Positions 2,188 through 55,800 of a stretch of 64,000 bases of DNA are shown here, piece by piece (position 1 is the first letter of the stretch; the number at the start of each line of letters is the position of its first letter). A program made the translations under genes and the position numbers. The notes beneath the pieces were generated by a model. It was not told where the DNA came from, made no database searches, and saw only the letters and a program-made list of their open reading frames with translations. The DNA comes from Alloascoidea hylecoeti (Eukaryota): assembly GCA_001600815.1 (NCBI GenBank), contig BCKZ01000011.1, positions 1 to 64,000 of the forward strand. The letters run 5' to 3'.

Positions 2188-2619
2188 ATGGCTGAATCAA
2201 ATTCTTTCTACAGTAATGATCAAAACGACCGTCACAACCAATATCAAGGATCCGGAAACAATGAAGGTAGTGGTGGAGAACGTGGCACTGGAGGTCTTAG
2301 CGGTGTAGTTGGAAAACTTGCAGTTCAAGCTGTATCTGGTTCTGGTTCTGGTTCTGGTTCTGGTGTAGGTGCTGGTGCTGGTGGTGCAACTAGTCAAATC
2401 AAGAATAAGCTCACCGGTGGTGGTCGTGATGATGACAGACGTAATGAACACCAAGGTGGTGGTCAAGGAGGATTCGGAGGTTCAGGAGGTCAAGAAGGCC
2501 AAGGCGGATTTGGTGGTCAAGAAGGTNGTCCAGCTNGCCAAGGATTTGGTGGTCGTCCAGAACGCCAAAGTGAAGGTGGCTATGGTGGTGATCAAAGTGG
2601 TCAAGATGTAAGTTGGTAA
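2188..2619 (+). CDS. Small Gly/Gln/Ser-rich hydrophilic protein (hydrophilin/stress-protein-like)
   Basis: 143-aa ORF with AAAATG context, an upstream TATAAA (~2117), strong GGT/GGA codon bias, GS repeats and QGGFGG repeats. Confidence 0.7.
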   Translation: MAESNSFYSNDQNDRHNQYQGSGNNEGSGGERGTGGLSGVVGKLAVQAVSGSGSGSGSGVGAGAGGATSQIKNKLTGGGRDDDRRNEHQGGGQGGFGGSGGQEGQGGFGGQEGXPAXQGFGGRPERQSEGGYGGDQSGQDVSW

Positions 2620-5578: not shown

Positions 5579-6073
5579 GTAAAAAGTATTCAAAGTTAAT
5601 ACGTGCAACTGTTAGATTTGTTCATTGTTAGACATGAATCACATGATAGTGGTTACACAAATTAGTTGCTTTTTTTATTTATATAGCTTTTTCCACTCTA
5701 GTACACCAATATTGTTCATGGATCACGGTTTTTCTTAGCTTTTCCCGCGATTGATATGTAAAGTGGTTCAACTACTTACCTCGAATGAGCATGATCTACT
5801 ATTGGAAAGGAAAATACGTAAAATCGAAGGCTAACATCGATAAACAAATACATGTAGTAGTTTGAATTTATAATTTATACTAGTATGCATAATCCTTTCA
5901 TCATTTATTTGTCTCCAAAGTAAAGAAAAAACTGAAATTAACTACTGGTAGTATTATATTATTCTCGTCTAAAATCGTGCTACTAAATAATAGGTGGAAT
6001 TAATATAATATATATAACGGTTTTTTATAAAGATTTAAATACTATCTGTCTATATTTACAATTGTTTAATGTA

Positions 6074-8440: not shown

Positions 8441-8979
8441 CTGATCTTCTGAGTCGATTAGTATGTGTTTTAGATTTTCAATCATACAATTAATGTGAAC
8501 AGGTAGAAGCGACATGGGATGGCCCAATATTCAGTGTATCAAGTGGCCGATATCAAGTGAAATGAGTACTATGATAACAACTGATCATGATGTTAATAAT
8601 ATTCCATCAATTGCAAAGTCATTGATCTACACTTTTCTCTAAATTGATTCAAAAATAGACATCTATACTTTACTATGATGTTAATGTGTGTGTGTGAGAA
8701 GTATTGGTCGCTACATCCGACAATATTTCGGCCACTGTGATTCATAGTATGACTTCTAAGTTCTCACCGACACTTACTAAATTTGTTAATATTTTCTTAC
8801 GAAGAGTTTTCACAGTGAAGCTGTACACACACGGTAATAATATTTGGCCATCTTAGTCAAACTTTTGTTATATTTTACTGGGGATGCAGAATAAATCAAC
8901 TTTAAAATATATTGCTTTCCTTGGATACTGAATTGAACTTTATTTTTAAATTCATTTGGTATGTCAATTTTACTTCTAC

Positions 8980-16500: not shown

Positions 16501-18563
16501 ATCTTTCTGTTCCTTTGATTCTTCATGTTCTGATAGCCCTTCACGTGCTGAAAATACTCCATATCCATGTTTTTTTGAAAAGGGTTCTTAGGTGGCAATT
16601 GGTCTTTGAAGTGCCTGAAACAAAGTGCTGTTTTGAACTTGAACGGGCTATAAGAATGTACGAATTTTGTATCTTTTCATAACAAACGTTATCTAAACAG
16701 TAGGCTGATTGTAAAGCGGATTAATTTGTACAGTATTCTTTTAATCTCAACAAACTGCAATTTGATTATGCAATTTTGCTATACACTTACTGATTTAATT
16801 GTATAATAGAATGTAAAGAACCATTTCTTGAACTATTCCAATAATATTAAGATTGTTAATTGTGCCTTGATAAACATTTATATATACATGTTTCGGAAAA
16901 ATTCGATGGTACATTATTGTTTTCTTCTTAAAACAACTAATATCTGTAGAGCTTTAAATCTTGCTTACCGGTACAGTTAGATATAACTTATAACATTATT
17001 GCATCATAATTTTGTGTTATGATTTATTAAGGCTGCCAATATGTTTGTATTAAATTCTCGGTTATAATATCTATGTAGCGGTTGCAATTGAGGTGTCTTG
17101 AAATTTCACTAGATCTTGTCTCTATAATTACAATATCATTCGTACGATTAACATACATGTATTCTAAGAATTCCTTGATGATCAATTAGCCATCTACATT
17201 ATATTAGTACAATTGCAAATTGCAAAGGTCAAGGATTTTGATACACAAGAATACCATTCTCTTGTTAATTTCAATCGTTCAATTCTATTATTGGATTTAT
17301 GGTTCTAGCTCCAACATACCCATAATCAGCTTCAGGTAACGGCTACAATACATGTGAAACATATTAATCAAAGTGCCAATTATTCTTCTAGAAGAGTATT
17401 TGTACAATGAGCAACCCCACAAGTTTTTGTCGGAACGCCAGCCATGCCTTCATAAATTATTCTATAACCATGACTAGAATTCAGATTTAAATGACACAGT
17501 TATGCTTTAAGGAAGAATAATAGAACTCTTTATACATTCAATATCATGATACATGATAAAATGCTTTATCCTGTAGTAAAATATTAATACAAAAATATCA
17601 TTTGATTTTTTTAGCACATTTACCAATTGCAAATTACAAATTACAAATAAAATAAGTCTAACCATGTGTTTGATACAGGATTCGAAGTCTCAAGATTAGA
17701 AACTTAAGCTCAACCTAAAAGACCAACAAATTTAGGATGTAAAGATAGGCGTCGCCGTTCTAAACTTGTAACATTTTTAGAGTAATGCATCATACCACAC
17801 AGGTCCGAAGCACGGAAAAGGTCTTAGTTTTGTGGTCATTTGGTGATGCTTTAATTCCGGCCACGTGAAACAAATTTATGACCCTCTGATTACAAATATT
17901 TAGTTATGGAGGTCGGGAAAATGATGGTGAAAAGAGGATGATATCATAGGAATCAGCAGACACTTTACTGTGGTTTGTAAAAATAATTGACATTTATAAG
18001 GTTACAATTATGCAGCTAGTGTCCGATGATCGGTTTACACAGGATATTCACATGTTTATGTAAAATTCCAACAACAAATGCCGATAAATAAAGATTTTAA
18101 ATTGACTAAAATTAATATTTGTCGAGATCCACCACAAATATCATATCCCGAATACATAAACTGGTATGCCGTATTTTAGTTAATAATCATACCAGTTAAT
18201 GGTTATAAATGTAGAAAGAGAAAAAGAATCAAATGCAGGTTTAGGTTAAGACACATTATTATGCATAAATACATGATATCGATATCTCACTTTGTAAATA
18301 ATAAACTTTTAAAATCCTCTAAATTTGAAAAATACACGGAACTCCTTCTTTTTTATATGAATTTGAAATCTGCTAATTTTCATTTTTCCATTTGAATTTT
18401 GTTTCTTAACTTCTATTAAATTAGTATGAAAGTATAAAAAGCTTTGAATTTCCATCGATTTTTCTAGTTTTGCCCCACTATACTTGCATTCCCCACTACT
18501 CTTGCATCTCATAATTTCATAAATAATAATTAATTATAACTTATAATTATAATTATATTAATC

Positions 18564-20324
18564 ATGAGTAACTTACAAACTTTACCTGATGAACTACTGG
18601 AAATCATCTTTCAAGATATTTCAATAATCGATTTATTTAATATTTCAATAACTTGTATTGAATTTTCAAAGTTTTTTTGGTCAACAAACTATGACACCCT
18701 AGTTAAAAAAGTATTATTAAAAACTGACCCATTTGTTCAATATAATAACAAGTCTAACAATTGGTTAAATATTGCTTTAAAATACCTAAGATTAAATAAT
18801 AATATTTCAAAAACAATAGATATATCAAATTTAAATTTATATTCAAAACCTTCAATTAAAGAATGGACTAAAAATAATATTAACATATCAAATTCTTTAA
18901 ATATAATTGATAGTTTATATTTATCAAATCTTAATAATTATGCTAAAAATAGGACAGGGCCTATTATTGATGAATCTGCAAGTTTAAACTCTCTATTATT
19001 TAATACATCAAATGAAATAGTTATTTATAATTTACCTTCTTCATCATCATCATCATCATCAAATAAAAATGCAACAAATCTAACAAAAAATAAAAAAGAT
19101 AAAGAAAGTTTATTAAAATTAATACCATTTGGTACAACAACAAGAAATTTATCATCTGAAAACATTGAAACAATAACAAATAAAAATAATAGTTTTTTGA
19201 TAACTTATGATAGTTATTATTTTGATTATTCAACTCCATTATCATTAAGTAGTTTAACATCAATAAAATCACCAACTAAAAATCATTGGAAATTTAATCC
19301 ACCATGCAATTATGAAGATATGAATATTTTATTTGGTATTAATAATGATTTAATTTACTTATTAAGTGAATCATTAATAAATAATAATATTTTTATTTCA
19401 TCATATCAAACAAATCATTTAAATTTAAAAAATCCATCAATTTTAAAATGGAAATTAAAATTAATTCCAAATTCAAAAGTTGTACCATCAAATATTTTTG
19501 TTAATGAAGAATTTATATTATTTACATTAGATTCATCAATTGGTTTAAATTTAAAACAAGATAAAATTTATTCTGAAAAAAATGAAAAACAACCACAATT
19601 AGTATTTGTTTTATCAACAAAAACAGGTAATTTAATCGGTGTTTACAAAAATCAACTTCAATGTTCAAATTATAGAATTATTAATTCAAATGTATTTTGT
19701 GATTATTCAAATAAAATTTATGGTGGTTATGGTTCAAATTTAAATGAAACTTATAAATTATTATCATTACCATTAATTGATTTTTTATCACAATTAGATA
19801 CAACTACATATAATGAACAATTTCATATTATTGATATTGATGATAAAAATAATGAAAATTCTTCATCTAAACAAATACAATTAAAAAATTCAAATTTAAA
19901 AATTGATATGTTAAATAAAACAAATTCAATCAAAAAGGATTGGAATATTGTTATTTCACTCAATGATATTTCAACAAATAATAAAATAACATGGTCACAA
20001 AATCAAAATTTTATATCTGTTCATAGATATAGTAATGATAATTCATCATTTAAAAAATCAAGTGAAAATTTATATAATTCATGGTATTCAAAATCATCTA
20101 ATCAAAATGATTTAAAAAATAATAAAGAATATTTATTTTTATATAATTTAGAAACAAATGAAAAGAAATATTATAACTTAATAAATGATAATGATGATGA
20201 TTGTGATGATAAGAAATTGAATCAATCAATAAATATATCAGAAGCTGGAAATTCAAAATATTTACTTATTGATGATTCTTTAAATTTTATTTCTTTAACT
20301 GATGGTTATGTTCAATCATTATAG
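18564..20324 (+). CDS. F-box protein, Asn-rich
   Basis: N-terminal F-box LQTLPDELLEIIFQDISIIDLFNISITCIEF in a 586-aa ORF. Confidence 0.8.
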   Translation: MSNLQTLPDELLEIIFQDISIIDLFNISITCIEFSKFFWSTNYDTLVKKVLLKTDPFVQYNNKSNNWLNIALKYLRLNNNISKTIDISNLNLYSKPSIKEWTKNNINISNSLNIIDSLYLSNLNNYAKNRTGPIIDESASLNSLLFNTSNEIVIYNLPSSSSSSSSNKNATNLTKNKKDKESLLKLIPFGTTTRNLSSENIETITNKNNSFLITYDSYYFDYSTPLSLSSLTSIKSPTKNHWKFNPPCNYEDMNILFGINNDLIYLLSESLINNNIFISSYQTNHLNLKNPSILKWKLKLIPNSKVVPSNIFVNEEFILFTLDSSIGLNLKQDKIYSEKNEKQPQLVFVLSTKTGNLIGVYKNQLQCSNYRIINSNVFCDYSNKIYGGYGSNLNETYKLLSLPLIDFLSQLDTTTYNEQFHIIDIDDKNNENSSSKQIQLKNSNLKIDMLNKTNSIKKDWNIVISLNDISTNNKITWSQNQNFISVHRYSNDNSSFKKSSENLYNSWYSKSSNQNDLKNNKEYLFLYNLETNEKKYYNLINDNDDDCDDKKLNQSINISEAGNSKYLLIDDSLNFISLTDGYVQSL

Positions 20325-23412: not shown

Positions 23413-26400
23413 ATGAATGATGATTTGGATGGAGTTATTCATCCATCTTTACACCGAGAATGTGGAAAAGGACCATTGATCAGTATAAATGAAGTCAATG
23501 AAACAGCAATGTCCTTAATAAAAGCAATTGAGTCATCCAATAATAATGGAAGAGAATCTGATCAAAACATTAATGCAACAAATTTAAATGTCGGTCATGA
23601 TAGTGCGTCTGCTATTGCATCTGCTGCTGTTGCTGCTGGTGTTAAAAGAGATTATTTGGATTTAGATGATCATGATAATGATAATAGACATATGAATAAT
23701 GGTGGTGGTGGAAAGGGGACAAAAAGGTCAAAATTACCAACTAATTATAGAAAGTTTATATCAAATCATAATATTTCTGTTCAATCTGGTAGAAAGAAAA
23801 ATTGGATTTATTTACATTATGAATTAGTTGGAGAAAAAGATAATGATTCAAATGACAACGAAATTGAAAATGGTAATGGAAATGATGATGATGATGAAAC
23901 CTCTGACCTTAAAGATGTTTTATGGATTTGTAAACATTGTGGTAGAACTGTTGGTAAAGAATCAACACGTTATGAAAATAATAGTAAATTAAGGAAACAT
24001 TTATCAACAAAAGGAAATCATGGTGATTATTATTGGGATAAAAAAGGCATTAAACAAATGTTAACATCTGATGATAAAAAAGGTTTAAAAGCGCAGAGAT
24101 CAAGAATGGTTTATTATGACAAAGAACCTCATTTTCCTGTTCAATCTTTATCTAAAAATTCAACTATTTCTTCAACTCCAACTTCGCCTCCTCTTATTTC
24201 TTCATCTTCCACTTCCAATTCACAAAATTTAAGAAGTGAAAAGGATTCAAATGATAATGATAATAAATCAAATAATAATCTTACAAGAGATCGTTTCTTT
24301 GCAAGAGTTTTAGGATTTATTGCATCAACAAATACATCTTTCAAAGATGTTTGTAATCAATCTTTTATTGATTTATTTAAAAAGTCAAATCAATTTATTG
24401 AATTACGTATTGATTCTTCAACAATATCAGAATATGCAAATGAAAGTTATTTATATTATAAAAATTCAATTAAATCACAATTATCATTATCAACATCATG
24501 TATTTCAATAATTTTAGAATATTGGAATGATGATAATAATAATTTAACTTTTGTTATATTATGTTCTTGGATTGATGATTCATTTAAACAAAATTTACAA
24601 ATTTTAGATACTATTCAAATTAAGATAAATTTTATTGATGATAAAAATACAGATGAGATAATAGTTGAAAAGTTTAATAGATTTTTTATTAAAACAATTG
24701 AATTTTATGAAATTAAAAATCGAATTTTAACAATTAATGGAAATCCAACAAATTTAATTAAACTAATTATAAAAAAAATTTATAACGAAAAAGATGATGC
24801 ATATTTATTTAAAAGAAATCAAAAATTAATTAAAGATTTACCATTATCTGTTGATTTTGGATTAATTGAAATTTATGATAAATTAACAGATTTAATATTT
24901 GATTCAGAAGAATCACCATATAAATCATTACTTTTAAAATTAAAAAAATTTTTATTAAAAGTTTCAAATGATGAATCAAATTGGATTAAATATATTGGTA
25001 ACAATCATGATGATAATTATACAAATTATTCATTATCTTATTCAATTGAAAATAATAATGAATCAACATCATCATCATCAATAAATAACAACAATGATAA
25101 TAATAATCATAATCACGGTAATAATATTCAATCATTGACAACAATCACAAATCCTTTCAATGAATTTTCAAATGTTAAAAATATTAAAAGAATTTTACCA
25201 CAATTATTTGAAATAATGAATTTATCAAAACCATTTATTCAACAATATTTAAATAATAACAATGAAAATGAAAATGAATCATTAATTTTAACAGATGATG
25301 AATGGCAATCATTTGAAAAAATTTATATTATATTAAGACCAATAAATCAAAGTATATTATTATTTTCAAATCAATTATCAAACATATCAATAATTTATAA
25401 TAATTTTGAATTATTATATAATCATTTGATTGAAATTAAATCAAGATTAGATAGAAGATTTTTAAATAATAATCAAGAAGATAATTATTTAATTCAAAAA
25501 GTTGAATTAATTTTTTTAAAATTTCAAAATTATTATTATGAAATTAATATTTCATCAATTTTTAGATTATCATCATTATTAAATCCTTTAAATGTTAAAA
25601 GAACATTACCTGAATTACAAAATGATCAAGAAGATTTTTTACAACCAATTATTAAATTATTAACAAAACATTTATCTACAAATTCAAAAGAAAAAAATTC
25701 GAATACTAATAATTCGAATGAAGGAGATACAACTATTGGTGAATTTTTAGATCCAGTACTTACTTCAGAATCCCACGATGATAATGCTAATAACAATGGT
25801 GAGAATACTAGTAATGAAAATAACAATGATCATAGTAATAATCATAAATCAGAAAATTTATCAGTAATGAATCAATTTACTTTATTCACAACTGATTTAT
25901 TAACATATATTGAATCATCTTCAGGAATTCAAACTGATAAAAATTTATTACAATGGTGGAATTTTGAAGGAAAATATTGGGGTAGTTTAAATACACTTGC
26001 AAAAGATTTTCTTTCAATTCCAATTTCTTCACATATTTCATTACATAATTATTTTATAAATGATTCAATTTATAGTAATAATTATTCATCATCATCACAT
26101 TTATCATTAAATAATTTAAATTCAATTACAACAAATCCAAATATTGGATCAATTAATACTTTTAATTTAAATCAAAGAGTTAATTTACTACAATCACAAT
26201 CAAATGATAATGGGGAAACATCATCATTAATAAATGGTGGTGGTTTAAATAATAATGAAACTATTTTAACTAATAATATTGGATTAAGTGGTCTTGATAT
26301 AAATTATAAAATGAGTTCAGATTCTTTAAAAGCATTAATTATGATTAAAAAATTTAATGGTGTTGATGCTGCCTGTACCAGATATTTACAAATTCAAGGG

Positions 26401-26415
26401 ATTTCTGAAATGTAA
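23413..26415 (+). CDS. Domesticated, catalytically inactive hAT transposase derivative (BED finger + RNase H-like fold + hAT dimerization domain; Vid22/Env11-like architecture)
   Basis: BED finger WIYLHY..WICKHCG..NSKLRKHL..H; SIILEYW; LTDDEWQSFEKIYIILRPI; LLNP; LLQWWN..WGSLNTLAKDFLSIPISS. Intact 1000-aa ORF packed closely between host genes. Confidence 0.85.
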   Translation: MNDDLDGVIHPSLHRECGKGPLISINEVNETAMSLIKAIESSNNNGRESDQNINATNLNVGHDSASAIASAAVAAGVKRDYLDLDDHDNDNRHMNNGGGGKGTKRSKLPTNYRKFISNHNISVQSGRKKNWIYLHYELVGEKDNDSNDNEIENGNGNDDDDETSDLKDVLWICKHCGRTVGKESTRYENNSKLRKHLSTKGNHGDYYWDKKGIKQMLTSDDKKGLKAQRSRMVYYDKEPHFPVQSLSKNSTISSTPTSPPLISSSSTSNSQNLRSEKDSNDNDNKSNNNLTRDRFFARVLGFIASTNTSFKDVCNQSFIDLFKKSNQFIELRIDSSTISEYANESYLYYKNSIKSQLSLSTSCISIILEYWNDDNNNLTFVILCSWIDDSFKQNLQILDTIQIKINFIDDKNTDEIIVEKFNRFFIKTIEFYEIKNRILTINGNPTNLIKLIIKKIYNEKDDAYLFKRNQKLIKDLPLSVDFGLIEIYDKLTDLIFDSEESPYKSLLLKLKKFLLKVSNDESNWIKYIGNNHDDNYTNYSLSYSIENNNESTSSSSINNNNDNNNHNHGNNIQSLTTITNPFNEFSNVKNIKRILPQLFEIMNLSKPFIQQYLNNNNENENESLILTDDEWQSFEKIYIILRPINQSILLFSNQLSNISIIYNNFELLYNHLIEIKSRLDRRFLNNNQEDNYLIQKVELIFLKFQNYYYEINISSIFRLSSLLNPLNVKRTLPELQNDQEDFLQPIIKLLTKHLSTNSKEKNSNTNNSNEGDTTIGEFLDPVLTSESHDDNANNNGENTSNENNNDHSNNHKSENLSVMNQFTLFTTDLLTYIESSSGIQTDKNLLQWWNFEGKYWGSLNTLAKDFLSIPISSHISLHNYFINDSIYSNNYSSSSHLSLNNLNSITTNPNIGSINTFNLNQRVNLLQSQSNDNGETSSLINGGGLNNNETILTNNIGLSGLDINYKMSSDSLKALIMIKKFNGVDAACTRYLQIQGISEM

Positions 26416-34441: not shown

Positions 34442-35473
<1,032 letters not shown>

Positions 35474-36410: not shown

Positions 36411-36847
36411 GTTAATCATATTCATTAGCTTATAATTGTTGGGTAGTTTTATATACTACGATATTAGTAATAAATATGTGATGTTAGTGTTATAAATCTT
36501 ATTTACACTAATTGTGGTCACTTTTTAAACCAAATATGTTAATTAATATGTTAGAGTGATAATAACTATTGACCATGCGATCCTCTTTAGCTGTATCCAA
36601 CCATGTAATTGTCAAAATATTGAAATTTTGACTACTAATTATCCATCAATACCTTCCCTAACTTGTTGAACTCTATAGTTTTCTTTAGATTTTCAGCAAT
36701 GGATACATGTAAATCAAACCAACGATTAAATTGGGATTCATGAATATCGTTAAGCATTACCCAACCAGATTGTTATTTAGTTCTCATCAACCCTCCTTTG
36801 AATCGGTAAAAACAGTATATATTTGATTATAATTATCACCATTCATA

Positions 36848-37011
36848 ATGGGTGAAGAAAAGACACATATTAATGTCGTCTTCGTTGAACACGTCGATTC
36901 CAGTAAATATAAAAGCACTTGTCATATCATCTACATGTGTGATGGTATACCATTGAAAAGTTCGAGAAGGAAGCTGCCAAACTCGGTGGAGGTTCTTTCA
37001 AATACGCTTGG
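36848..37011 (+). pseudogene. TEF1: 5' fragment of translation elongation factor EF-1 alpha
   Basis: MGEEKTHINVVFVEHVDSSKYKSTCHIIYMCDG, a ~10-nt deletion, then TIEKFEKEAAKLGGGSFKYAW. The G1 P-loop (GHVDSGKS) is destroyed and similarity stops abruptly at 37011. Confidence 0.92.
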
Positions 37012-37439
37012 AGCTCAAGACGAAAGTTTAAACTTTCAAAACAGGAATAAAAAGAACAAATTTAATTTTTGGCGAGACGAAGGCGAGCAATGACGACTCT
37101 ACGAAACAGTAGATCAAGCTGCTCGTTCCCCAAATGTTGGCCTTCATAAACACTTTGGATCACAAACATTTTAGACAATACATGGTCTAATAAGCTCATA
37201 TGCTTTTATTATTAACTATAAACAAATTTAATGGCCCTTCATCTGTTCCTTCATCTATTCCTTCATCTGAAAAAATATTTGTTTTATTTGTTTGTAAGCC
37301 TCGAACTGTTATTTTGTTATATTCACTAAGTACGTATTGACCCTTTACTGTGATACATATTACAATTATAAAAGATCTCAGAATTCTTTAATTATGATCA
37401 CTTTCAATATTCCAGGATCTTATAGATCCAAATCCTCTA

Positions 37440-38395
37440 CTATAAGTAAGGTCTTATACCATTATGAATACAAATTCTACTGTAGTAGCTTTTACTTTAA
37501 AGCTGTGCTGTAAATCAAACTGTAGTTAATGTTCTAAATTATGAACACAAACTCCAACATAATCATAATTACAAGATACACTATAATCATTGCATAAAGT
37601 GACATTCCTCACAGCAATATTTGATAATACATAAGGACTAGTACTTTGTTGTCTTGGTATTATCAAACGATTTATTGGTTTAAAATCTAGTAATTTCCAA
37701 ATTATAAGTTACAAGAACCATCATTTGAAGAAGAAACCAAATAATTATACTATCCAAAGATCTAACATCCAAATGATATTTAAATCTAATATCGATATTT
37801 TTTGTTAATTCTGATATTTCAATATCTGAAAAATCAGGAATTAATTCACTTAATATTTTTGAATATATTAAAGGTGTCATTATCCAACTTCTTATTATAT
37901 TAATATTCTGAACCTGTAAAAATACATCCTTTAAAAAATTTAACTCAATTTGTTTTTATCAAAATGAAATATAATTAATTTATGCATATGCATATCTGGG
38001 GATATGGAAATATTAGAATTGACAAAAGGTACCAATATTAAATTTCATTTGGATCCGGATAGTGTTAGACTTTTGGATACCAATGAAAATCATCCGATTT
38101 CTTTTTTACACACACCATGAATTAGTTTCTGAATTATCATTAAAATTATTTCCAAAGATGTTGTTAAAACTTTAATCTCATTTTCAACTATGTTTCCATA
38201 AATTCGAAACTCTTCTATAAATGAGTAGAATTGTTGGTGGCAAATCTAAAAACATGATTTCAGATATTTCATCAGCTATAGGGGAGATAGGAAACAAAAT
38301 TGATTTTAGTCTGAAGATTTCTGAGTAAAGTACAGTTGTTTAAATGGTTGTTGTTCGATCAGTAATATTGTGGATTTTTCCAATAACAAAGGGTT
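37440..38395 (-). pseudogene. F-box gene pseudogene, copy 1
   Basis: The minus strand near 38290-38195 reads PIADEISEIMFLDLPPTILLIYRRVSNLW (F-box-like). The rest has stops; colinear with 40890-41402. Confidence 0.65.
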
Positions 38396-39374
38396 ACAAA
38401 TTTCACTTCCTACGAAATCTGGTGTGACGAATCTACTTGTTTGTGGGTAATCTCTATTTAGTTTTTTGCTCAATATAGCAACAACACTTAAACTAATATT
38501 CGGCCATACCGACTAAAATAATCTGCCACCTATACTTATGAACGAAATACTTTTTGATCGTATATTTACACATTAATATTCCTATTCACATACTAGAAAT
38601 TCATTGATAGTCAGCATAAAGTATATTTATCTCTATACTCTATAGCTATTTATTAACAACAATTTTTCTTTTTCGAAAGATTTGCAGATGAATTCACTAA
38701 AATGACAACACGCATATCAATGAGTTATAACTTATAGTTCAAATAATGAGAAGGCAGTTCCAGGATTTTTGACTCATGATGTTATTGAAAGTATGTATTT
38801 TTTTTTTTTTTTTTTTGGTCCACTTTATCCAACTTTTGGCAAACAGCACCGGTTCATCCCCAGAAATAACACCAATAACAGAGTTATTTACTGTAGGCAA
38901 AGTGTAAGCGGGTCAAAAATTAGTGTAAGATGGCTTATTACTTTAGTCGGCACCAGTATTAGATATCGATTAGGGTGTGGCCGAATATTTAATTCAAAAT
39001 GTAACATATAATAACCGTTAAGCGGCCGAATATTTAATGTTACGTAGTCCAATAATAAGCTAAAGCATTTTGATTCTCCATAAATAATTATCGGCCACAT
39101 TATTGCTGGTATGACGTGTAAATAGGCAGGGACATTGAATACCTTCGGATGCCAACCCCGGCCAAAATATTATGGTGTAAGTATCCGATAATTAGTACTC
39201 AACATGACCGATATTAAGTGAAATAACATTAAAATAGAGATTTTATAGAATTTAATTTTGTATTAAATTGAATTTCCAATTATTTTTGATAAGATTTCAA
39301 AATTGAAGTTACCGCTTACATTTTAAATTGAAACTTATAGGTAATGTTATTCAGATTATTTAAGACCATGTGAA

Positions 39375-40512
39375 GGTGGGCAACGACAATACTTGAATCA
39401 TCTTTTATTAAGCGATTAAGAACAGATTTAAAAATGGTTGGTGAACAATATTCTTGGACAGGTAGTGCATTTTATCTTGGTTATTTATTTTTTGAATTTC
39501 CTGCATCAATGTGTTTTACAAAAATTTCCAGTTATAAAAACTCTTAGTACATTCATTATAATTTAGGGTGCAATTCTTTGTTTACATGCTACACCAAATT
39601 ATGCTGGATTTGTTGCTCTAAGGACTCTTCTAGGAATGTTTGAATCTGCAGTTACACCAGCTTCCGTTTTAATTACAGCCCAATGGTATAAAAAGAAGAA
39701 CAATTTTTAAGAACTTCTATTTGGTTTGCATTCAATTGGAATAATAATGGGGCATCAATTGCCTACGGGTTAGCTATAAAAGCAGATGTATATTCTATTG
39801 AAGTTTAAAAAATCCTTTATATTGTTGCTGGACTTTATACAATTACACTTGGAATAATTCTTCTTTTTCATCTTCCTGATGTTCCTTCAAAAGCATGGTT
39901 TTTAACCGAGTTAGAAAGGAAACAGGTAATAGCTAGAATTAAATCAAATCAACAAGGATTTGGTAATACACATTTTAAAATTTATATCAATTTATTGAAG
40001 CATTTAAAGATATTAGAACATATTTAGTATTTATAGAAGCTATTACTGCGAATATTCTAAATGGAGTATTAACTAACTTCGGATCAATTCTTCTACAAGA
40101 TGATTTCGGATATGGTAAATTAGATGCATTATTAATGGGGATGCCTGCTGGAGCAGTTGAGTTAATAGGTTGTCCTTTATTTGGACTTTTATCATTATAG
40201 ATTCCACATCGATCAGGAATAGCAACATTTGTTATGTTGTTAACTGATGCATTATTTTGTGTATTTGCATTTTCTGGAAATAAAACTGCAAGATTAGCAC
40301 CGAATTATTCAGGAGCTAAAATTGCAATGATTGTTGGGAATTGTGCTACAGTTTGTATAATGGCTCTATATTTTTTGAATTGGAAAGACAATAAAAGAAG
40401 AGGTAGAGAAGAATAAATATTAACTAAGGAATTACATTTGGATCAAATTGAAAATATTGAATTTGCTGATTTAACTGATTTTGAGCATCCATACTTTAGA
40501 TATATTCTTTGA
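39375..40512 (+). pseudogene. DAL5: Allantoate permease (DAL5 family, anion:cation symporter MFS) pseudogene with internal deletion
   Basis: LRTDLKMVGEQYSWTGSAFYLGYLFFEFP..ALRTLLGMFESAVTP..TAQWYKK..LPDVPSKAWFLT..RIKSNQQGFGN..LTNFGSILL..ENIEFADLTDFEHPYFRYIL*. Several frameshifts and Trp-position stops; the N-terminus and part of the C-terminal half are missing. Confidence 0.9.
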
Positions 40513-40889
40513 ATATTAGAAATATATATTATGACATAACTCGAAATGTTTTCGTAGAAAAGTAATGTGTCGACCATATTGATTGTTTTTATTAATATTA
40601 ATTAATACAATTATTTTGATTTTTATCGTTTAACATTTGATCAGCCGTTTAGTTTGGCCATAGTTAATCAAGTCTCAGTCGTCATTTTCTCATGTTAACA
40701 CTTTACGTAAACGTTGCTTGCGCAAACTGATCGAGAGCTTTAATATGGTATACAGGGATCAAAGATTCCCGAATTGAAAGCTAGACATCGAGATTCTCAA
40801 TCAAAAAAAACTAAATTAAACTTATTGTAAGTTACATACAATTCATAAGTCATTATTAATTAATGTATTTTTCTTCTTCGTTAAACACA

Positions 40890-41402
40890 ACATTCAATGT
40901 ACCATTATGAATGCAAATACTACTATAGTAACCTTCTACTTTAAAAGTGTGCTGTAAATCCAACTGTTGTTGATGTTCTAAATTATATAGACTTGATTTC
41001 CAGACCCCATCATTACAAGATACAATATAATGATTGTATGAAACAACTTCCCTAGGAACAAGATTTGATACATAATACGTAATGATATAATACTTGTTTG
41101 TCTGCAATTGGTATTATCAAGACATTCATTTCATACTATATAAATTAGTTTCTGAATCATTATTCTAATTATTTCCAAGAGTTTTTGTTGTCAATTAAAA
41201 CTTTATTCTCATTTGATTCCATAATTCCGAATAAAGTTGTTAGTGGAAAATCTAAAAAGATTATTTCAGATATTTCATTAGCTAAAGTAAATCGATTGTA
41301 GTTTGAGATTAAATATTATTGAGCGAAGACATGTTGCAAATTTTTCAAATGGTTGTCGCGTGGTTATCAAAAATACTATGGTTTTTTCCAATAACAACAG
41401 GG
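40890..41402 (-). pseudogene. F-box gene pseudogene, copy 2 (internally deleted)
   Basis: Reads LANEISEIIFLDFPLTTLFGI. 40904-41120 aligns by eye to 37461-37670, and 41140-41402 to 38118-38395; about 450 bp of copy 1 is absent. Confidence 0.65.
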
Positions 41403-41914
41403 AATTCTAAGAAAAGAAATTTGTTCACTATTTCTGTAATGGATGTTACTAGATGTGTCTAGAGGGAGTAAGTGTGGAGTGTTTGGTCCGTATGAGCCCA
41501 CCTCACCCACTTATAATGATTTAGACCTACTGTTTTATTCCAATCTAATGGTTACATTCCTTGAACGAGTCTCTTTCTCTTATTATAATCAGATGTGAAA
41601 TGTAAATCTTCCCCTACTTTTTCTATAAAATTAAGGTGATAAAACTAGCAGTAATTATAATTATAAGGTTTGGGTTTAGGGTTTCATTACTAGAAATCTT
41701 GGATCCCGATCTATAATAAATGGGATAGATTTCTCATATACTTAATATACCACATCCTTTTTAACCCGTTTGTTCACATAACAATAAGTTGTCTGACCAA
41801 GAAAAAATCCACCTCCAAATTAAAATACGACGCGCAGAGCTTACTTTCTTTTTAAGCAGAACTACACAATGTAGTACGCATCACACTTAATATAATGATG
41901 TAACTATGTGTAGC

Positions 41915-42230
41915 TTAGCCCGACGCGACTTTATCCAACTTCACGCTGTTGTAGATGTCAATAACGAAATTAATGGCATTACAGAAGCAATCAATGTATC
42001 ACGTGCTTTTACTTAAACATCAGAAGGTTGCTTTCAAGCTCTGCAATGTTTACACTGCATATGTGGAGGAGATTCAGGTTGTGAGATTATCTGGAAGTTC
42101 AGGAAGGTGTTGGATCCAAATTAATTCCCATCTATTCCCCAATTGAGGGGAATGTTCCACTTGTGTTGAATTTGTTAATGCCATAAATGATTTAATTCCC
42201 CTTTTTATTTTTAAATCAAAGGGTATATAT
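41915..42230 (+). mobile_element. Relic of a pogo/Fot1-like (Tc1/mariner, DDE_1) transposase
   Basis: RRDFIQLH (cf. W..RF..RH), then in another frame NVYTAYVEEIQVVR..PN*GECSTCVEFVNAINDLIPLFIFKSK (cf. NIYN.DETGF..NRE..T.IECI.A.G..IPP.IIFKGK). Confidence 0.45.
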
Positions 42231-43610
42231 GAATTGTTACTCAATGTCGATAAAGCCTCCCGTGAAGAAAGCATTCGGTCAATTAGAGTACCTGTGATGT
42301 CAGTGAAAAAAGATGAGGCTACTAGAGCTCATGCCATGAAGCTGGTGGACATCCATATGAAGTACTCGCTTATACAGATAAGGGATTTATCTGTAAGTAT
42401 GAAAAGAAAACTCTACATATAAAGGTAATCATTAGAATTGTTCCTTGTATTACAGACTGAAGAAATAAAATGAATTTTAAAGCCAGAAAGGCCCATCGGG
42501 TTTTACTATAATAAAGCACTTGAGTTTTGAAGGCATTATCGTGTTATCCACTTGATCGTGACGATCTGTTAAAATATATATCACATATTAACGAAATCTC
42601 TCAGTCAAGTGAGTAGTAGTAGTATTTATTTTGGACCTTAGAAAGATATAATTATAAAAGGAGCCGAACTATCCTCTTTGTTTTGTGGAGGGTAGTGTAG
42701 CCGGTCTTCAATAGTTAGCGCTTCATTAGCGGCCCCACCGTTTGTTTGTGTACTCCGAACCTTAATTTTCTAAAATGACAACTACAAATATGAAAACACA
42801 ATATTAATCAAATGAAGATCTGTGTGTTTCTTCATGGTAAATTTCAACTTGATTGCTTTGATAAACTATTTATTCTTAAAAAAATATGCAAAATTTAAAT
42901 CCAAAAATATTGAAAATGAAAATGATAGGATCCTAAGACTAAACTCAAGCTTAATAACTCGGTCCGTCGTAGTATGAGAAACAGAGGCCAATGGAAATAA
43001 TGAATATATCCTCTTAATTAAATCTGAGAGGGAGGCTTTAAATATAAATTTATACATGAATAAATATATAATATAGGTTAAGTTATGAACCGCGACTTTA
43101 GACGACAAATGCATCGATATCTATAATCTTTTTATTCTCATGTGTTTCACCTAAGATGAGAGTATCTTCTATATAGGCAATGGATATATTTGTAAAATTT
43201 AACAAATATTATAGTTTTTGCGTTTCTTATGTTCTGAATTTGTAATTGGTGGCACACTCGCGGATCTTAATTATAACTAAGCTTATCCTACATAAATCTA
43301 AAGTTATCATTTCAAATATAGCAAAATATACATATAGTTAGTTAGTAATGAACTGAATATATAAGTGGAGGTGCTATATATATAGCTAGACACCGCGACA
43401 GATTCGCAAGTAGGTTTGACTAGTCATGCTCAAACCCACATGGAGACAGCTGGTTGCAGTTGCTGAATGCATATATTCATACTATAAAAGCTTGGCAATA
43501 TTAATAGATACATATCAATAGGGTTCATTATTTAGATATATAATAACTATAGTGATCTCTTTTGTTTCTTTTAATCAATTATACCAATTGATTTATCATT
43601 CTTTTTCATC

Positions 43611-46367
43611 ATGGTTAATATCAATATTTGTCACTCGTTTCTTTATTTATTTTATATTTCTTTGCAATTTATATCATTAGCAAATGCAGCAGGAGTTAGT
43701 TTTGATTTTTCAAGAGTAAAAATCTCAAAAGAAAATGAAATTTTACCAATTCATAATAACGCTCTTAATAAAAGGGCAAATGCATATCAAGAATATGTAC
43801 TTAAAAATGAGAAATCTTTCTATATGATTAATTTTACTCTTGGAACACCTGAACAAGATGTTATTGGTGTTCTTTTAGATACTGGTTCATCTGATTTATG
43901 GGTTTCATCTAAAAAAAATAAGTTATGTGAAGAAATTGGTTGTGAACGTTATGGAACATATGATCCAGATATTTCATCAACATGGAAATATAATAATTCA
44001 AAATTCTCTCTTACTTATGCTGATAAAACTTATGCAAAAGGTGATTGGGGTATGGATATAATCCATATTGGTGATATATCAATTCCAAATTTAAACTTTG
44101 CTGTTGCTTTGGATGCTACATCTGAATTTGGTGTTTTTGGTATTGGCTTTGATACTCTTGAATCTGCTCCTGAAAAATATATTAATTTCCCTGGTGCTTT
44201 AGTTATGAATGGTCTTATTAATTCACAAGCTTATTCGATTTTCTTAAATGATGCCAATGCTGATTCTGGATCTATATTATTTGGAGCAGTTGATCATTCC
44301 AAATATGTGGGAACTTTAAGTACTGTCCCTATTGTTAGCACTACCAGAACAGCTGTTCGTTTAACTGGATTTTCAGCAGAAGATAACGGTTGTGAGACAG
44401 ATGCATTCACACCTTACCACTGGTACTCAACAGCATGGGGACAATTAGGTCATCAAACCAGTGCTGGTCTTTTTGTTCTTCTTGATACCGGAACTACTCT
44501 TACAATGCTACCTAAAAGTTTTGTAGAGGGAATTGCAGAAGCTTTTAATGCAATATATGATAAGGAACAAGGTTATTATTTTCATTCATGTAATGGTGAT
44601 GGACTTAAAGTTAATTTCAAATTCTCTTGTGCAACAATCTCTGCTCCATTGAGTAATTTTCTTACTCCTAGTTATTATGAAGATGGTTCTCCAGTATATC
44701 TTCCTAATGGTGAACCTCAATGTTTTTTTGATTTTATTACAACGAGTGATATTCCAATTTTAGGAGAATCCTTTCTAAGATCTGCCTATGTTGTGATGGA
44801 TTTGGATAATAAACAAGCTTCTTTGGCTCAAGCCAAGAGTGACCCTTCTGCTACTAGTGAAATCGAAGAGATTCAAATTGGCCCTGATGGTATTCCTAGA
44901 GATAGTACAGCAGTTTGTAAGGCAGCTAAATATTCTTCTTGTCAACCTTCTCCTCGCACTAGTTCCTCCAGTTCAACCTCTTCCGTTCCTACATCATCTA
45001 ATATTAGTCCTTCTGATATTTCTTCAGTTCTCTCATCGAGCTCCTCTATTATTAGTACCGTGTCCAGTACAAGTACTGAAGAAGCTCATTCAACTCCATC
45101 TACGGTTATTTCATCTTATTTCACTTCCAGATCAGCTATTACCAGCAGTAGCTTTATTGCAAGTAACTCTGAGGAAGCTCACTCAAATATGAATGTAGTC
45201 AGTTCTTCTCTTCCTTCTACTACGGCTCCTACAACATCATCAGCACCCAAAAGTGTTCATTCAAGTATTTTATCAGCTTCAACCTCAGATGCTACCTCAG
45301 ATGCTACTAGTGCTATTCCAATTTCTATTTCTGCTGTGTCAAGACATTCACTATTAGCTGTGGTCAGTTCTTCTTCTTCTGTAACTTCTCATACTCAGCC
45401 AATGGTTACTTTAGATTCTATAAGCTCTTACTCTACTCCTACATCATTGGTATCTTATAGTCATGACTCTAACACTTTGGGTCTTAGTAGTGGCATTTCA
45501 GAAGTACAATCACAACCATCTACAACCGCAATTGCAATTTCGAGCGTTGAATTATCTGAGGCTATAGAACCCATTGAAGTTATTGAGACTAGTTCTTACA
45601 CAACGGAGACGTTTACTTCTTGTGAAACTATTATAAATAGTGATACTACTGGAATTGTTACACTAACTTATACCACTGTTGTCCCCTGTCCAACTATAGT
45701 AGCTGACTCAACTTTTGAAGCAACAACAGAAATGGTTGATACTCCTCTTTACATAACAGAGACTACTATTTCTTATGAAACTATTATTAATAATGACACT
45801 ACTGAAGTTATCACACTAACATACACCACTGCTGTTCCTTGCCCTTCACAATCACTAGTAACTGACTCAACTTTTGAAGTAACAACAGAAATTGTTGGTA
45901 CTCCTCTTTACATAACAGAGACGACTATTTCTTGCGAAACTATCATTAATAATGACACTACTGAAGTTATCACACAAATTTACACCACTGTTGTTCCCTG
46001 TTCAACTACAGTACATGGTGACCCAGATTTTGAAGAAACAACACCAACAGTGCAATTGGCACCAACAGTAATTATTGAAACTACTATAGATATTGAAACT
46101 ACTGTTACACCAACTTACAAAACTGTTGTCACACATTCAACTACAATCCCTGCTTTTAAAGTAACACCAGAAACATTGCAATTGAAACCATGGTCAGCAG
46201 TAATTACAAACACTCCATCTCTTTTGAATACCATAGCAAGTGTAAGTTCAAACCTTTCAACGATAACACCAATAACAAATATTGAACCAAATTTTGCAAG
46301 TCTGATTAGGCCATATATGCCAATATTTATTTGTATGGTTATATCATATTCCTTATTTTTCTTTTAA
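43611..46367 (+). CDS. Secreted, probably GPI-anchored aspartyl protease (yapsin/SAP/Bar1 family) with a Ser/Thr stalk
   Basis: Signal peptide, pro-region ending NKR, catalytic LLDTGSSDLWV and LLDTGTT, GSILFGAVDHSKY, ILGESFLRSAYVVMD, an S/T-rich tail and a hydrophobic C-terminus. Confidence 0.93.
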   Translation: MVNINICHSFLYLFYISLQFISLANAAGVSFDFSRVKISKENEILPIHNNALNKRANAYQEYVLKNEKSFYMINFTLGTPEQDVIGVLLDTGSSDLWVSSKKNKLCEEIGCERYGTYDPDISSTWKYNNSKFSLTYADKTYAKGDWGMDIIHIGDISIPNLNFAVALDATSEFGVFGIGFDTLESAPEKYINFPGALVMNGLINSQAYSIFLNDANADSGSILFGAVDHSKYVGTLSTVPIVSTTRTAVRLTGFSAEDNGCETDAFTPYHWYSTAWGQLGHQTSAGLFVLLDTGTTLTMLPKSFVEGIAEAFNAIYDKEQGYYFHSCNGDGLKVNFKFSCATISAPLSNFLTPSYYEDGSPVYLPNGEPQCFFDFITTSDIPILGESFLRSAYVVMDLDNKQASLAQAKSDPSATSEIEEIQIGPDGIPRDSTAVCKAAKYSSCQPSPRTSSSSSTSSVPTSSNISPSDISSVLSSSSSIISTVSSTSTEEAHSTPSTVISSYFTSRSAITSSSFIASNSEEAHSNMNVVSSSLPSTTAPTTSSAPKSVHSSILSASTSDATSDATSAIPISISAVSRHSLLAVVSSSSSVTSHTQPMVTLDSISSYSTPTSLVSYSHDSNTLGLSSGISEVQSQPSTTAIAISSVELSEAIEPIEVIETSSYTTETFTSCETIINSDTTGIVTLTYTTVVPCPTIVADSTFEATTEMVDTPLYITETTISYETIINNDTTEVITLTYTTAVPCPSQSLVTDSTFEVTTEIVGTPLYITETTISCETIINNDTTEVITQIYTTVVPCSTTVHGDPDFEETTPTVQLAPTVIIETTIDIETTVTPTYKTVVTHSTTIPAFKVTPETLQLKPWSAVITNTPSLLNTIASVSSNLSTITPITNIEPNFASLIRPYMPIFICMVISYSLFFF
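45585..46005 (+). repeat. Intragenic tandem repeat, about 2.7 units of 153-159 nt (51-53 aa, Thr-rich, Cys-containing)
   Basis: Y.TET..SCETIIN.DTT.V.T.TYTT.VPC recurs with unit anchors at ~45594, 45747 and 45906. Confidence 0.9.
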
Positions 46368-52873: not shown

Positions 52874-55800
52874 TTAATAATTTTGACTTTGTATATTTAC
52901 GGTGCATAAATTTCGGAAAATTTTCGCTGACATCCCTGAGCTTTTTGACTATATTCAGTTATTGGATTGTATACTCATCACTAGTCAATTGCAATAGCCA
53001 TTGATGTTGTTTATATTTATTCTTAATTGTATTTTATAAGGTTACAACAATAGGCTGGTTAACTAGTACTCATTCACATTCATAATATCCGATAAGAACA
53101 ACTTACAATAACAATGAATTAAATAATTCGTATATAAGCCTTATAGCCCATAAAAATGATATTATTATAATAAACATACGCGTGTTGGTAAAGCCAGAAA
53201 TACATATTTAAAAAGAATTGATATTGTATTACAAATATCACTACATCTGAATAGTTGTGAAGAAAAATATTAAAATCGAGCCATTCGAAACTTTGCATTA
53301 GTAATATAGTATATCCTCGATTTAAGAAATACAAATATTTCGCCCTAAAGCTGAGATATAATGGATTCTGGAATGAAATAAGACACGTATAATATTCCAT
53401 CAGCTAATGAATCATATGAATCGGGCATAAACATTACAAAATATTTGGATTCATTTAATTTTGGGGTCGCGATTGAACCACTTTGGTATTAAGTTTCTCT
53501 TAAATTAAGAGTATCTCCATAAAGTGAGACCTAACATTGTATCCTGAAATGGTATTTCGCAATTGTAGTTGTACAATTGCAGCACCATTACAATTAATTC
53601 CATTAATATTAATCCTCACTAGTACATGTATATTAATTATATCAACTGTTTCAAATGCTGTTGATAAATAGCACACTTTAAAACTAATAATCATAGGAAT
53701 CGTTTTATATTGTTCCGTTTTGACGAAAATAATTATATCATATGAAGTTCAGCTATAGCAATTCAAAGTAACTTTATGTAACTGTGGATCTTAACCTTTT
53801 TGTACGCTACCTTAAACCTTAACATTTCATAACGTAACCTTATTTATACACATTACATATTCATACATATTTGTGTATATTGTGTGGGGACTTCCAAATT
53901 GCCCTTGCTTAAGAAACTGAAAGTGAATATCGTTAATATTGTTGGAAATACAGTACGCACTATCGAATCAGTCAACAAGAGGTCATATGGCTTTTTGGTG
54001 CAACTGGTTCGACAATCTCTATTGAATATGTCTGTCATAGTGTAACTACTGTATCTAGCTCCGCAGAGTCTGCACAGTGATGTTTTGAGCATCCCAAGTA
54101 TATTTGAATCTGTGCTGTAGATTACTTTATATAGAATATTGTCTTTAACAAAACATCTAGATTTTATAGGTTTTGTTATACAAACATTATTGTGTTACCT
54201 TGTGTTACAATATTTCCGTCTCCTCCACAGTGTGTCACGTTAGTCCAGTATTCCTTAGTGAATTCGAAGCTAACTATAATACAATTTATATTAAGATACA
54301 TCAAAAAGCTACAAATAAACTTTTGCAACAGTGCAGATACCGTATAGGAGAATATATTATCCACATTGCATACACTGTTATTACAAGCTAAGAATTTACT
54401 CCAGAAATAACACAATTTTCACATGGTTAAGAATTCAAATACAAAACTTTCAGATTATATGTATGAATGAGTTATCACCTAATTAGGTAATTTGGGCCGA
54501 AATTATACATAACTACTGTATATAGGTGTTGGGATCCATATTTGAATACCCATCCAAGCCTCAACACATACCAATGAAAACAAAATAAGGAACACAAAAT
54601 AAGGAAAACATAAATTCTATTTGGTATTTATCTATTGTATATGGCTTTTAATAAGTCATTTAATGTTAATGTTGGTGGTTGGTGCATTGAATTCCAAAAA
54701 AAGGTAGGGAAAACCTCTATGCACGGAGAATTAAGTTGTCCGTACCACCATGATTAAATAGTACTCATATAATACTTGTCCATTTTATAAGGAACTCCAT
54801 GAATAAGTTAATCTTAACAATTTATAATCAGGTTAGGATGAGGTTGGGCCTGTGATATTAATTTACAAACATGAATAATAAAACTAGATCTAGTTCTCGC
54901 TAATTTTAGTTTAATAAAATTAAGACGGCTGAGATCCATGTTATATCTCATAAATTATAGCTATTTAGATTGTTGTATTTGGAATTGATATTTATAATTA
55001 CAATATAGCATGACCAGGAGGTGTAGTATGTGAGCTCGAATGTTACTGTTTAAGATAGTTTCTGTGAAATGGTCAATTCAAAATATTCCATGAAGTTTTA
55101 TCTACTGTTTTTAGTTATATAATTCATGCCTCTATACTCTCTAGTATAATACAATTGATGTATTATCTTTATACTATATAATTATCATGCGTAATATAAT
55201 TAACGTTTGATGTATACGCACATTTGCATTTTTACACTTCCTTACTTTAATCTAAATTTCGATTTTAATCCAATTCATAATTTGGTAATTATATTATAAT
55301 GATTTTAAGATAAATACAACAATTATACCATTAAAGTACTATAGTCCACACTAATCAGAACTGTTAATCGAATATTTAATCATTTAAACGGCTGTGGGAA
55401 TATGTGCAATCGCTCCTGATTCACCCCAAATGACAATACGTTTTTGTTCCAGGCTTAATATATAGATTCTTAACATATAATGGTAAATCCAGATCAACTT
55501 CCTGTACATATTATGGCTTCAGATATAATATGATCAGTTTTAGAAAATTAGATTAGATGGCTGCCCAATAGTGCGATATCCAACATATACTACAAGGAAA
55601 CTGTAAAAGGTTTTATGTTAGTATGTGCATTGTACACTCTTGAGCACTAAGCAGTTGATAAGTGGCCGTGCGAATTTTTGGCGTAACTGATTCTAACACT
55701 TTATATTAGTAAAGTTTATATACCTTGTTTTTTTTCTCTTGAACACAAATAGCTGTTGTTGCATAGATAGAAAATTGCTACATATAAAGCATATGTAAGG

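Follow-up and report, generated by a model that had tools for sequence, protein, structure and literature searches.

Dispersed head-to-tail arrays of a 13-bp motif with a 22-24 bp register in a 64-kb window of the Alloascoidea hylecoeti genome

The first 64 kb of Alloascoidea hylecoeti contig BCKZ01000011.1 (hereinafter the window) carry yeast-type genes, some with short introns, in DNA of ~30% G+C, and include long stretches without open reading frames (ORFs) at 7.9-11.7, 13.6-18.5, 35.5-43.6 and 52.9-59.1 kb. A 13-bp motif, RTGGCCGAWWWTT, recurs along the window in seven islands (2.8, 8.5-8.85, 14.1-14.4, 16.2, 17.9, 38.5-39.2 and 54.5 kb). The most populated of them, at 38.5-39.2 kb (hereinafter island E), lies within 35.5-43.6 kb, an 8-kb stretch that holds no intact gene. 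What is new is that copies of the motif form short head-to-tail, same-strand arrays with a register of 22-24 bp. All motif statistics given below are drawn from this one 64-kb window.

The consensus was derived from 14 aligned non-coding copies and is GC-rich in AT-rich DNA. The string GGCCGAWWATT occurs six times exactly, compared with a mean of 0.05 in 100 dinucleotide shuffles, none of which reaches six, bearing out the enrichment over shuffled controls on which an earlier note on this DNA had staked the motif. With one mismatch the count is 14 versus 2.62 (shuffle maximum 6), and the pattern [AG]TGGCCGA[AT][AT][AT]T is found six times versus 0.07, with a maximum of 1 in 200 shuffles. The loosest pattern tried, TG[GA]CC[GAC]A[AT][AT][AT]T, is not enriched (12 versus 3.69, shuffle maximum 13), and the weakest copies cited previously (39159 and 39205) are therefore credible only through their spacing. 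An unbiased word count places GTGGCCGA (5 versus 0.36) and CGGCCAC (8 versus 0.99) among the most over-represented non-repeat words; GGCCG occurs 23 times on both strands, palindromes counted twice, and we read ~11 of these as lying in motif context. All 12 strings cited in the earlier note (six within 38495-39215, and those at 8543, 8722, 14396, 16214, 17851 and 54494) are present exactly where it placed them. Its list of copies lacks an island of ~7 degenerate units at 2827-2985, and its description of the copies as non-coding holds for 14 of the 15 strong sites, the exception being an unlisted strong copy at 13573-13585 that forms the start codon region of an MFS transporter gene.

Conservation among the 14 aligned copies rises above the 99.9% null level only at positions -4 to +3 and at +7 and +8. 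The flanks are at background within 30 bp on either side (22 + 26 positions), except for a weak A at -6, and only these flat flanks constitute independent information, because the core columns served to choose the copies. Within the core, TGGCC is invariant or nearly so. A sensitive self-BLAST of the window (word size 9, E 1e-4) gave no island-to-island high-scoring segment pair (HSP), and among the 18 HSPs of at least 60 bp that were printed, of 27, none joins two islands.

Strong sites, defined by a score of at least 12 against a 13-bp position weight matrix (PWM), number 15 and are markedly clustered: 11 have a neighbor within 150 bp, as against 0 of 5000 random placements in non-coding DNA, and five fall within 700 bp at 38.5-39.1 kb (P about 0.001). 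A single strong site is coding, versus 41% of the window (P = 0.004). The register emerges from the PWM matches scoring at least 5 (n = 78, about equal to the number in shuffles), which include 10 same-strand pairs 22-24 bp apart, compared with a mean of 0.2 and a maximum of 2 in 200 dinucleotide shuffles, and 5 same-strand pairs 45-48 bp apart (mean 0.23, maximum 2, in 200 such shuffles); all 15 register pairs are confined to islands Z, A, C and E. Units thus follow one another head to tail at a constant period of 22-24 bp, as in a tandem repeat, in arrays Z, A, C, E1, E2 and E3 (Table 1), and some arrays form inverted pairs. None of the 148 rows returned by Tandem Repeats Finder falls on the arrays, which escape the program because they are too degenerate. 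The spacers of 9-11 bp differ within and between arrays, with a tendency toward an initial T and toward TCAW near the end. The perfect cores that stand beside a heavily decayed unit at 38977, 39001 and 39022 suggest selection on some sites rather than uniform decay.

Table 1 Motif arrays and single copies, and genes, pseudogenes and repeats around them, in the 64-kb window
Feature	Coordinates	Strand	Copies or basis	Remarks
Array E1	38495-38507; 38517-38529	-	ATGGCCGAATATT; GTGGCAGATTATT	22 bp apart; PWM 18.5 and 14.5
Array E2	38977-38989; 39001-39013; 39022-39034	+	GTGGCCGAATATT; decayed GTAACATATAATA; GCGGCCGAATATT	span 38928-39034
Single strong copy, island E	39086-39098	-	GTGGCCGATAATT	PWM 21.4; 68 bp from each + strand neighbor
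Array E3	39158-39216	+	CCGGCCAAAATAT; GTATCCGATAATT; ATGACCGATATTA	weak; PWM 6.4, 9.5 and 10.7; spacing 23 and 23 bp
Array Z	2827-2985	-	~7 degenerate units	23-27 bp spacing; local variant GTGGTCGA
Island A, left pair	8519-8555	+	ATGGCCCAATATT; GTGGCCGATATCA	24 bp apart
Island A, right	8723-8735; 8839-8851	-	GTGGCCGAAATAT; ATGGCCAAATATT	opposite orientation to left pair
Island B, strong copy	14396-14408	-	ATGGCCGAAAATT	
Island B, weak copies	anchors 14036, 14049, 14073, 14134, 14259			island span 14032-14408
MFS start-region copy	13573-13585	-	ATGGCCGAAAATT	start codon and first codons (M-A-E-N) of MFS transporter 2
Array C	16214-16273	+	GTGGCCGATATTT; ATGACCGAAACAA; GTGGCCAATTATT	24 and 23 bp apart
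Island D	17852-17864	-	GTGGCCGGAATTA	overlaps CACGTG
Isolated weak copy	54493-54505	+	TGGGCCGAAATTA	PWM 10.2
MFS transporter pseudogene	39374-40512	+	tblastn of P0024	5'-truncated; directly right of island E
Direct repeat X	37457-38410; 40900-41420			about 70-75% identical; brackets island E and the pseudogene
eEF1A pseudogene fragment	36833-37090	+	E 7.5e-8 to PDB eEF1A residues 1-38	
MFS transporter 1	6074-7882	-	Pfam	
MFS transporter 2	11738-13585	-	Pfam	
F-box ORF	18564-20324	+	Pfam	
hAT-like ORF	23413-26415		Pfam	
Thi4	34442-35437	-	Pfam	
Aspartyl protease	43611-46367		Pfam	Ser/Thr-rich tail

Island E combines these arrays with an inverted duplication. Array E1 and the left part of E2 make up its two arms (38495-38531 and 38928-38989), which share 37 nt at 83-94% complementarity, one of them with a 24-nt insert; a weaker E2 unit at 38930-38942, upstream of the others, belongs to the right arm. 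When the DNA of 38480-39005 is folded, pairing of the two arms dominates the structure (z = -3.65), and 0 of 100 shuffles fold as well.

The surroundings of island E hold several relics. The MFS transporter pseudogene on its right was recognized through P0024, an intact 514-aa relative that is 82% identical to a 73-aa fragment of it. In tblastn only residues 89-514 of P0024 find a match there. The match has a ~57-residue gap, shifts frame near 39985 and contains in-frame stops; residues 1-95 match nowhere in the window at E up to 1. Identity in the intact blocks is about 82-91%, suggesting that the pseudogene stems from a fairly recent partial duplication; its sequence motifs point tentatively to the allantoate-permease (Dal5) group. 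Because island E abuts a 5'-truncated gene copy, it cannot be the promoter of the pseudogene. The left copy of repeat X bears a ~430-bp insert, itself with an inverted duplication (37767-37826 / 38001-38054), and both copies of X contain short similar minus-strand reading frames without a Pfam match. The eEF1A fragment comprises the first ~70 codons only, starting from Met1, with a frame shift and the other frame at 36943-37047. Two adjacent plus-strand frames at ~41955-42419 read like the DDE region of a suspected pogo/Fot-type transposase relic (...ECSTCVEFVNA...IPLFIFKSKG), with no match in Pfam.

The remaining islands differ in their setting. In island A the two pairs give the polarity + + ... 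- -, no copies intervene between 8723-8735 and 8839-8851, and a 14-nt inverted repeat (8518-8531 / 8839-8852) is 93% complementary; its left pair lies 640-670 bp upstream of MFS transporter 1. Island B lies 450-820 bp upstream of MFS transporter 2. The two transporters are paralogues of 35% identity, and both have motif copies 0.45-1 kb upstream. GTAAGTG follows one motif copy in each of these upstream regions at 40-75 bp (at ~40 bp after 14396-14408), and 5'-untranslated-region introns are suspected in the two genes from this sequence. The strong copy in the start region of MFS transporter 2 was not counted as an element. The start (ATGGCCGAAAATTTAG) and the upstream copy at 14396-14408 (ATGGCCGAAAATTAG) are near-identical over 15-16 bases and both continue ...TGTGCAA; the resemblance is either a coincidence or a sign of partial duplication, and may in the latter case reflect duplication of the 5' end of the gene or an alternative first exon. 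Array C lies midway in a 4.9-kb stretch without ORFs, and island D lies ~700 bp upstream of the F-box ORF, with weak copies at anchors 18023 and 18081. Array Z begins ~200 bp 3' of the stop codon of a glycine-rich, hydrophilin-like ORF on the plus strand (2143-2619; MAESNSFYSNDQ..., with GG/GS/GQ repeats), which has no Pfam match.

From a motif that is enriched, confined to 13 positions, clustered and held in register, we infer that a protein binds it and that the binding would serve the host. We tentatively favor the view, to which we give not quite an even chance, that the copies of RTGGCCGAWWWTT are putative recognition sites of one sequence-specific DNA-binding protein, clustered and multiplied by local duplication. 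A 13-bp core kept at unrelated loci, free spacers and flanks, a strict register and perfect units beside decayed ones all fit recognition sites of one protein. The sites would constitute homotypic clusters in long non-coding stretches, grown by local tandem duplication of a ~24-bp unit and at least once by inverted duplication. Because neighboring sites share a strand and stand 22-24 bp apart, they would be occupied in a row, by several molecules of the protein or by one multimer; the strict register points to cooperativity in such loading and offers a simple, specific signature for finding arrays genome-wide. For the host, the clusters may form regulatory modules upstream of the F-box gene and the two MFS paralogues, with the copies upstream of both transporters counting in favor, or chromatin boundary or architectural sites. 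If one protein does read the sites, a regulatory or architectural system would come into view in a poorly known and isolated yeast lineage: its MFS and hAT-like proteins have no relatives above ~33% identity in very large databases. A search with MFS transporter 2 found no relative above 33% identity, and a metagenome scan with both paralogues returned 80 loci, all distant (22-44% identity, partial matches) and unsuited to promoter comparison.

Several observations weigh against recognition sites in the service of the host. The densest and best-kept cluster lies in a gene-free stretch beside a pseudogene and is not a normal promoter module there. The islands are placed with respect to genes no better than chance would have it: about 3 of 7 lie within 1 kb upstream of an ORF start, versus roughly 40% of non-coding DNA by our estimate. 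When the two MFS upstream regions are aligned locally, the best match covers the motif together with a GTGTGTG run, but its score is at shuffle level (26 versus 25.0, standard deviation 2.1). The units of array Z are decayed, which gives it the look of a dead array, and inverted pairs and dispersal are also expected of transposon ends.

Candidates for the binding protein, named by resemblance, are a Hot1/Gcr1-type factor, a BED-finger protein such as the hAT-derived one encoded at 23.4 kb, and a zinc-cluster protein. The last was among the alternatives of the earlier note, which proposed Zn2Cys6 CGG sites. Such sites have an invariant CGG/CCG triplet, usually paired at fixed spacing; most copies here are without a second CGG at a fixed distance, and no core base is kept less often than the G of CCG (11/14). 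It is not CCG but TGGCC that is invariant, which makes a classical zinc-cluster site unlikely.

The nearest functional precedent we found is the Hog1-responsive element (HoRE), a partial resemblance that came to light post hoc through a text search. According to PMC4462951, the Saccharomyces cerevisiae STL1 promoter carries direct repeats of CATTTGGC at about -650 that are bound by Hot1, and several repeats must be mutated for activity to be lost. As in the window, direct repeats of a short TGGC-containing motif lie far upstream of an MFS transporter gene. The HoRE repeat reads GCCAAATG on its other strand, matching A-variant copies here (GGCCAAAT at 8839-8851); on the reverse strand, A/T-variant copies of our motif read ATTTGGCC and the main consensus ATTCGGCC. 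A primer table in the same source includes GGTGGCCGAAAAAG at about -583 to -564 of STL1, ~60 bp downstream of HoRE, in which the first 11 bases of our core recur without a mismatch. The two systems differ in that HoRE consists of 8-bp repeats at 9-bp spacing in one promoter only of its genome, whereas 13-bp copies recur at 24 bp in seven islands within 64 kb here; the main consensus deviates from CATTTGGC at 2 of 8 positions, and no gene with a GCR1_C domain was seen among the Pfam-annotated genes of the window.

The alternative that survives best, a possible but doubtful one, holds that non-autonomous DNA transposons left the arrays behind as they eroded. The copies would then be subterminal repeats, or terminal repeats of foldback type, to which a transposase once bound and to which a host protein derived from a transposase, for instance the hAT/BED gene product, might bind even now. 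Dispersal of the copies in both orientations, the inverted pairs typified by island A, the complementary E1/E2 arms with their stable fold, the position of island E among relics (eEF1A fragment, truncated transporter copy, X repeats) and the presence of a hAT-derived gene in the window all accord with such an origin. The earlier note had read the cluster more specifically as eroded ends of hAT elements or miniature inverted-repeat transposable elements (MITEs), beginning with a TAGGG-type terminal inverted repeat (TIR). That TAGGG lies at 38971, within array E2, and its sequence, TAGGGTGTGGCC, occurs once, without an inverted mate; allowing up to 3 mismatches gives 4 matches versus 9.57 expected, none of them a nearby inverted mate. 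Inverted-repeat scans of six islands returned only pairs made of the motif itself. The note had found no target-site duplication (TSD), and we likewise see none by eye at any island, the flanks of the candidate pairs 8518/8852, 38495/38989 and 38977/39098 showing no 8-bp, 3-bp or TA duplication. With no TIR mate, no TSD and nothing common to the copies beyond the 13-bp core, the proposed hAT or MITE ends fail, and the absence of shared flanking sequence among copies, which the note itself had named as grounds for giving up a MITE/TIR reading, refutes it. What stands of its interpretation is the broader idea behind two of its alternatives (Zn2Cys6 sites and a general regulatory factor site), repeated binding sites for one protein.

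Transposon remains of a more general kind meet further difficulties. No TIR lies outside the arrays, and the islands lack similarity beyond the core in the printed HSPs of the self-BLAST. A Pfam scan of 111 of the 131 ORFs of at least 45 aa from the gene-free stretches, all but 20 from 1-1100 and 3.5-4.1 kb, detected no relic of a transposase or reverse transcriptase. End polarity is inconsistent, with inward-facing (A, E2/39094) and outward-facing (E1/E2, D) islands, and no copy flanks the hAT-like gene. The precedent for such fossils is Kat1 of K. lactis, for which PMC4763223 describes a fossil 385-bp element at the MATa locus with TGAATT subterminal repeats of opposite polarity at its two ends. 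The arrays resemble this element, and hAT subterminal repeats in general, in that numerous copies of a short motif are packed into a few hundred bp and point in opposite directions on the two sides, and a hAT-derived host gene with a BED-like finger lies in the window. They differ in having no TSD, no single target locus, a 13-bp rather than a 4-6 bp motif and a strict 22-24 bp register; moreover, Kat1 needs GTATAC-led TIRs in that description (PMC4763223), whereas the arrays here are without TIRs. GTGGC was once proposed as a subterminal repeat of Hermes/hobo, and PMC10368747 re-evaluates this and now favors AAGT, whose irregular sites are unlike the register seen here. Both polarities are present among the motif repeats, and regularity of this sort is atypical for hAT subterminal repeats.

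The gene at 23413-26415 is hAT-derived, as the earlier note had claimed, to judge from weak matches to Dimer_Tnp_hAT (E 4.5e-4) and zf-BED (E 0.2), the latter at about residues 160-205 of the 1000-aa protein. A search of 1.8 billion representatives gave only 5 relatives at E up to 1e-3, all distant; DUF659 is present in two of the five, one of which also has Dimer_Tnp_hAT, and a weak zf-BED in one. A PDB search with the protein gave no transposase match. The gene is packed between host genes, and no copy scoring at least 12 lies between 17.9 and 38.5 kb, the span that contains it. It is unlikely, though conceivable, that the island arrays are docking platforms for a transposase-derived host protein, be it the product of this gene 15 kb away or another BED/Myb protein. 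A domesticated DNA-binding module and the 24-bp phased arrays would then have been co-opted together, and the arrays could serve as boundary or architectural elements marking gene-poor, fast-changing stretches, which would amount to a genome-wide extension of the 'fossil imprint' logic of Kat1 in a budding yeast. In Drosophila, the BED fingers of BEAF-32 and DREF bind CGATA clusters at insulators and promoters. Those sites, like ours, are short, GC-rich at the core with AT-rich flanks (several of our copies read CCGATA), clustered in either orientation and located between genes, but they belong to animal proteins, their motif has 5 bp and their spacing follows no fixed register.

We consider it improbable that the copies form a neutral minisatellite family of dispersed members, whose core lacks both a protein partner and a function and is merely left over from common descent or from a sequence prone to duplication. 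The decay of array Z, island positions no better than chance, a densest cluster in junk DNA, and the capacity of tandem and inverted duplication alone to create arrays would all be expected of it; the same 13 bp at unrelated loci without a common spacer or flank, and the perfect cores next to decayed units, stay unexplained. Tandem repeats that tune expression in yeast promoters are mostly AT-rich and of low complexity, each specific to its locus. The arrays here are likewise short, non-coding and near genes, with units that come and go, and differ in that one GC-rich core is common to many loci.

Still less credible are interstitial telomere-like repeats, that is, telomerase-templated units of ~24 bp added at healed breaks and later decayed. 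The arrays are short (2-7 units), dispersed in either orientation and without TIR or TSD, their 22-24 bp unit falls within the range of the long telomeric repeats (about 23-25 bp) of many budding yeasts, and one copy abuts TTAGGGTGTGG. A templated unit should, however, be conserved throughout, whereas the 9-11 bp spacers vary and only the 13-bp core of ~24 positions is kept, and the variant GTGGTCGA of array Z points to local duplication rather than to one template. A literature text search combining the core with 'telomeric repeat' showed no yeast telomeric repeat containing the core among the matches listed. Should the arrays be remnants of transposons or telomeres after all, they would be of use in showing where insertions or breaks once occurred. 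That the sites are elements of replication origins or of a centromere is a far-fetched proposal; it would suit their non-coding, AT-rich surroundings and a CCGAA core reminiscent of the CDEIII core of point centromeres, but a density of seven islands in 64 kb, with four inside 10 kb, is far too high for origins and impossible for a centromere, and the islands show nothing else that would recall an origin consensus.

Other candidates were considered and set aside. An upstream ORF or start-codon context is not supported, since five copies start with ATGGCC and eight with GTGGCC and both strands are used. Tc1/mimp-type TIR ends were rejected as the copies are without TA flanks and tandem copies cannot be termini. 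Gene capture of the Pack type was dropped as well, the one inverted copy seen, near 40655-40664, being below threshold. The consensus does not fit Rpn4 PACE, Ume6 URS1, Crz1 CDRE, the RFX half-site or the CCAAT box, nor Mcm1/MADS, HSF/Skn7, Rgt1, the tRNA B box or a retrotransposon primer-binding site. A whole-word literature search with 8-mers of the core gave nothing relevant; plant AP2/ERF-DREB papers that match words of the core are, as we presume from their titles, matches to the DRE/CRT sequence TGGCCGAC, and AP2/ERF factors are not known from yeasts.

Further Pfam-annotated genes of the window include PQ-loop, OST48/WBP1, DnaJ, CRAL-TRIO, PHD, PP1-type phosphatase, RRM and TALE-homeobox genes; a tRNA scan of the window found 0 tRNAs, and an Rfam scan of all of it 0 matches at gathering score. 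The sequence contains 17 single N bases, confined to 308-7121 in the first 7.1 kb, three of which lie in the first MFS ORF and were read as X. The gene-free stretch upstream of that gene holds an old tandem duplication of ~1.1-1.2 kb (9683-10158 / 10880-11245, 68% identical) that includes a 143-aa frame without a Pfam match. A second strongly over-represented motif, CAATTGCA (mostly YCAATTGCAA), has 20 sites, for example at 8608, 17083, 17210, 17624, 52986, 58168 and 58535, in coding and non-coding DNA, with one copy in the middle of island A; its both-strand word count is 20 versus 3.5 expected, and the word CAATTGCAA is counted 16 times versus 1.2. The palindrome (A)TACATGTA(T) is found at 5849, 17154, 35585, 36195, 36704, 53623 and 63262 (both-strand count of TACATGTA 14 versus 2.5 expected), and GCATATGC is over-represented at 5 sites (count 10 versus 0.6). 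The aspartyl protease ORF carries, at 45544-46190 in its Ser/Thr-rich C-terminal half, tandem repeats of 153-159 bp (about three copies, 79-83% matches), as is typical of a cell-surface protein.

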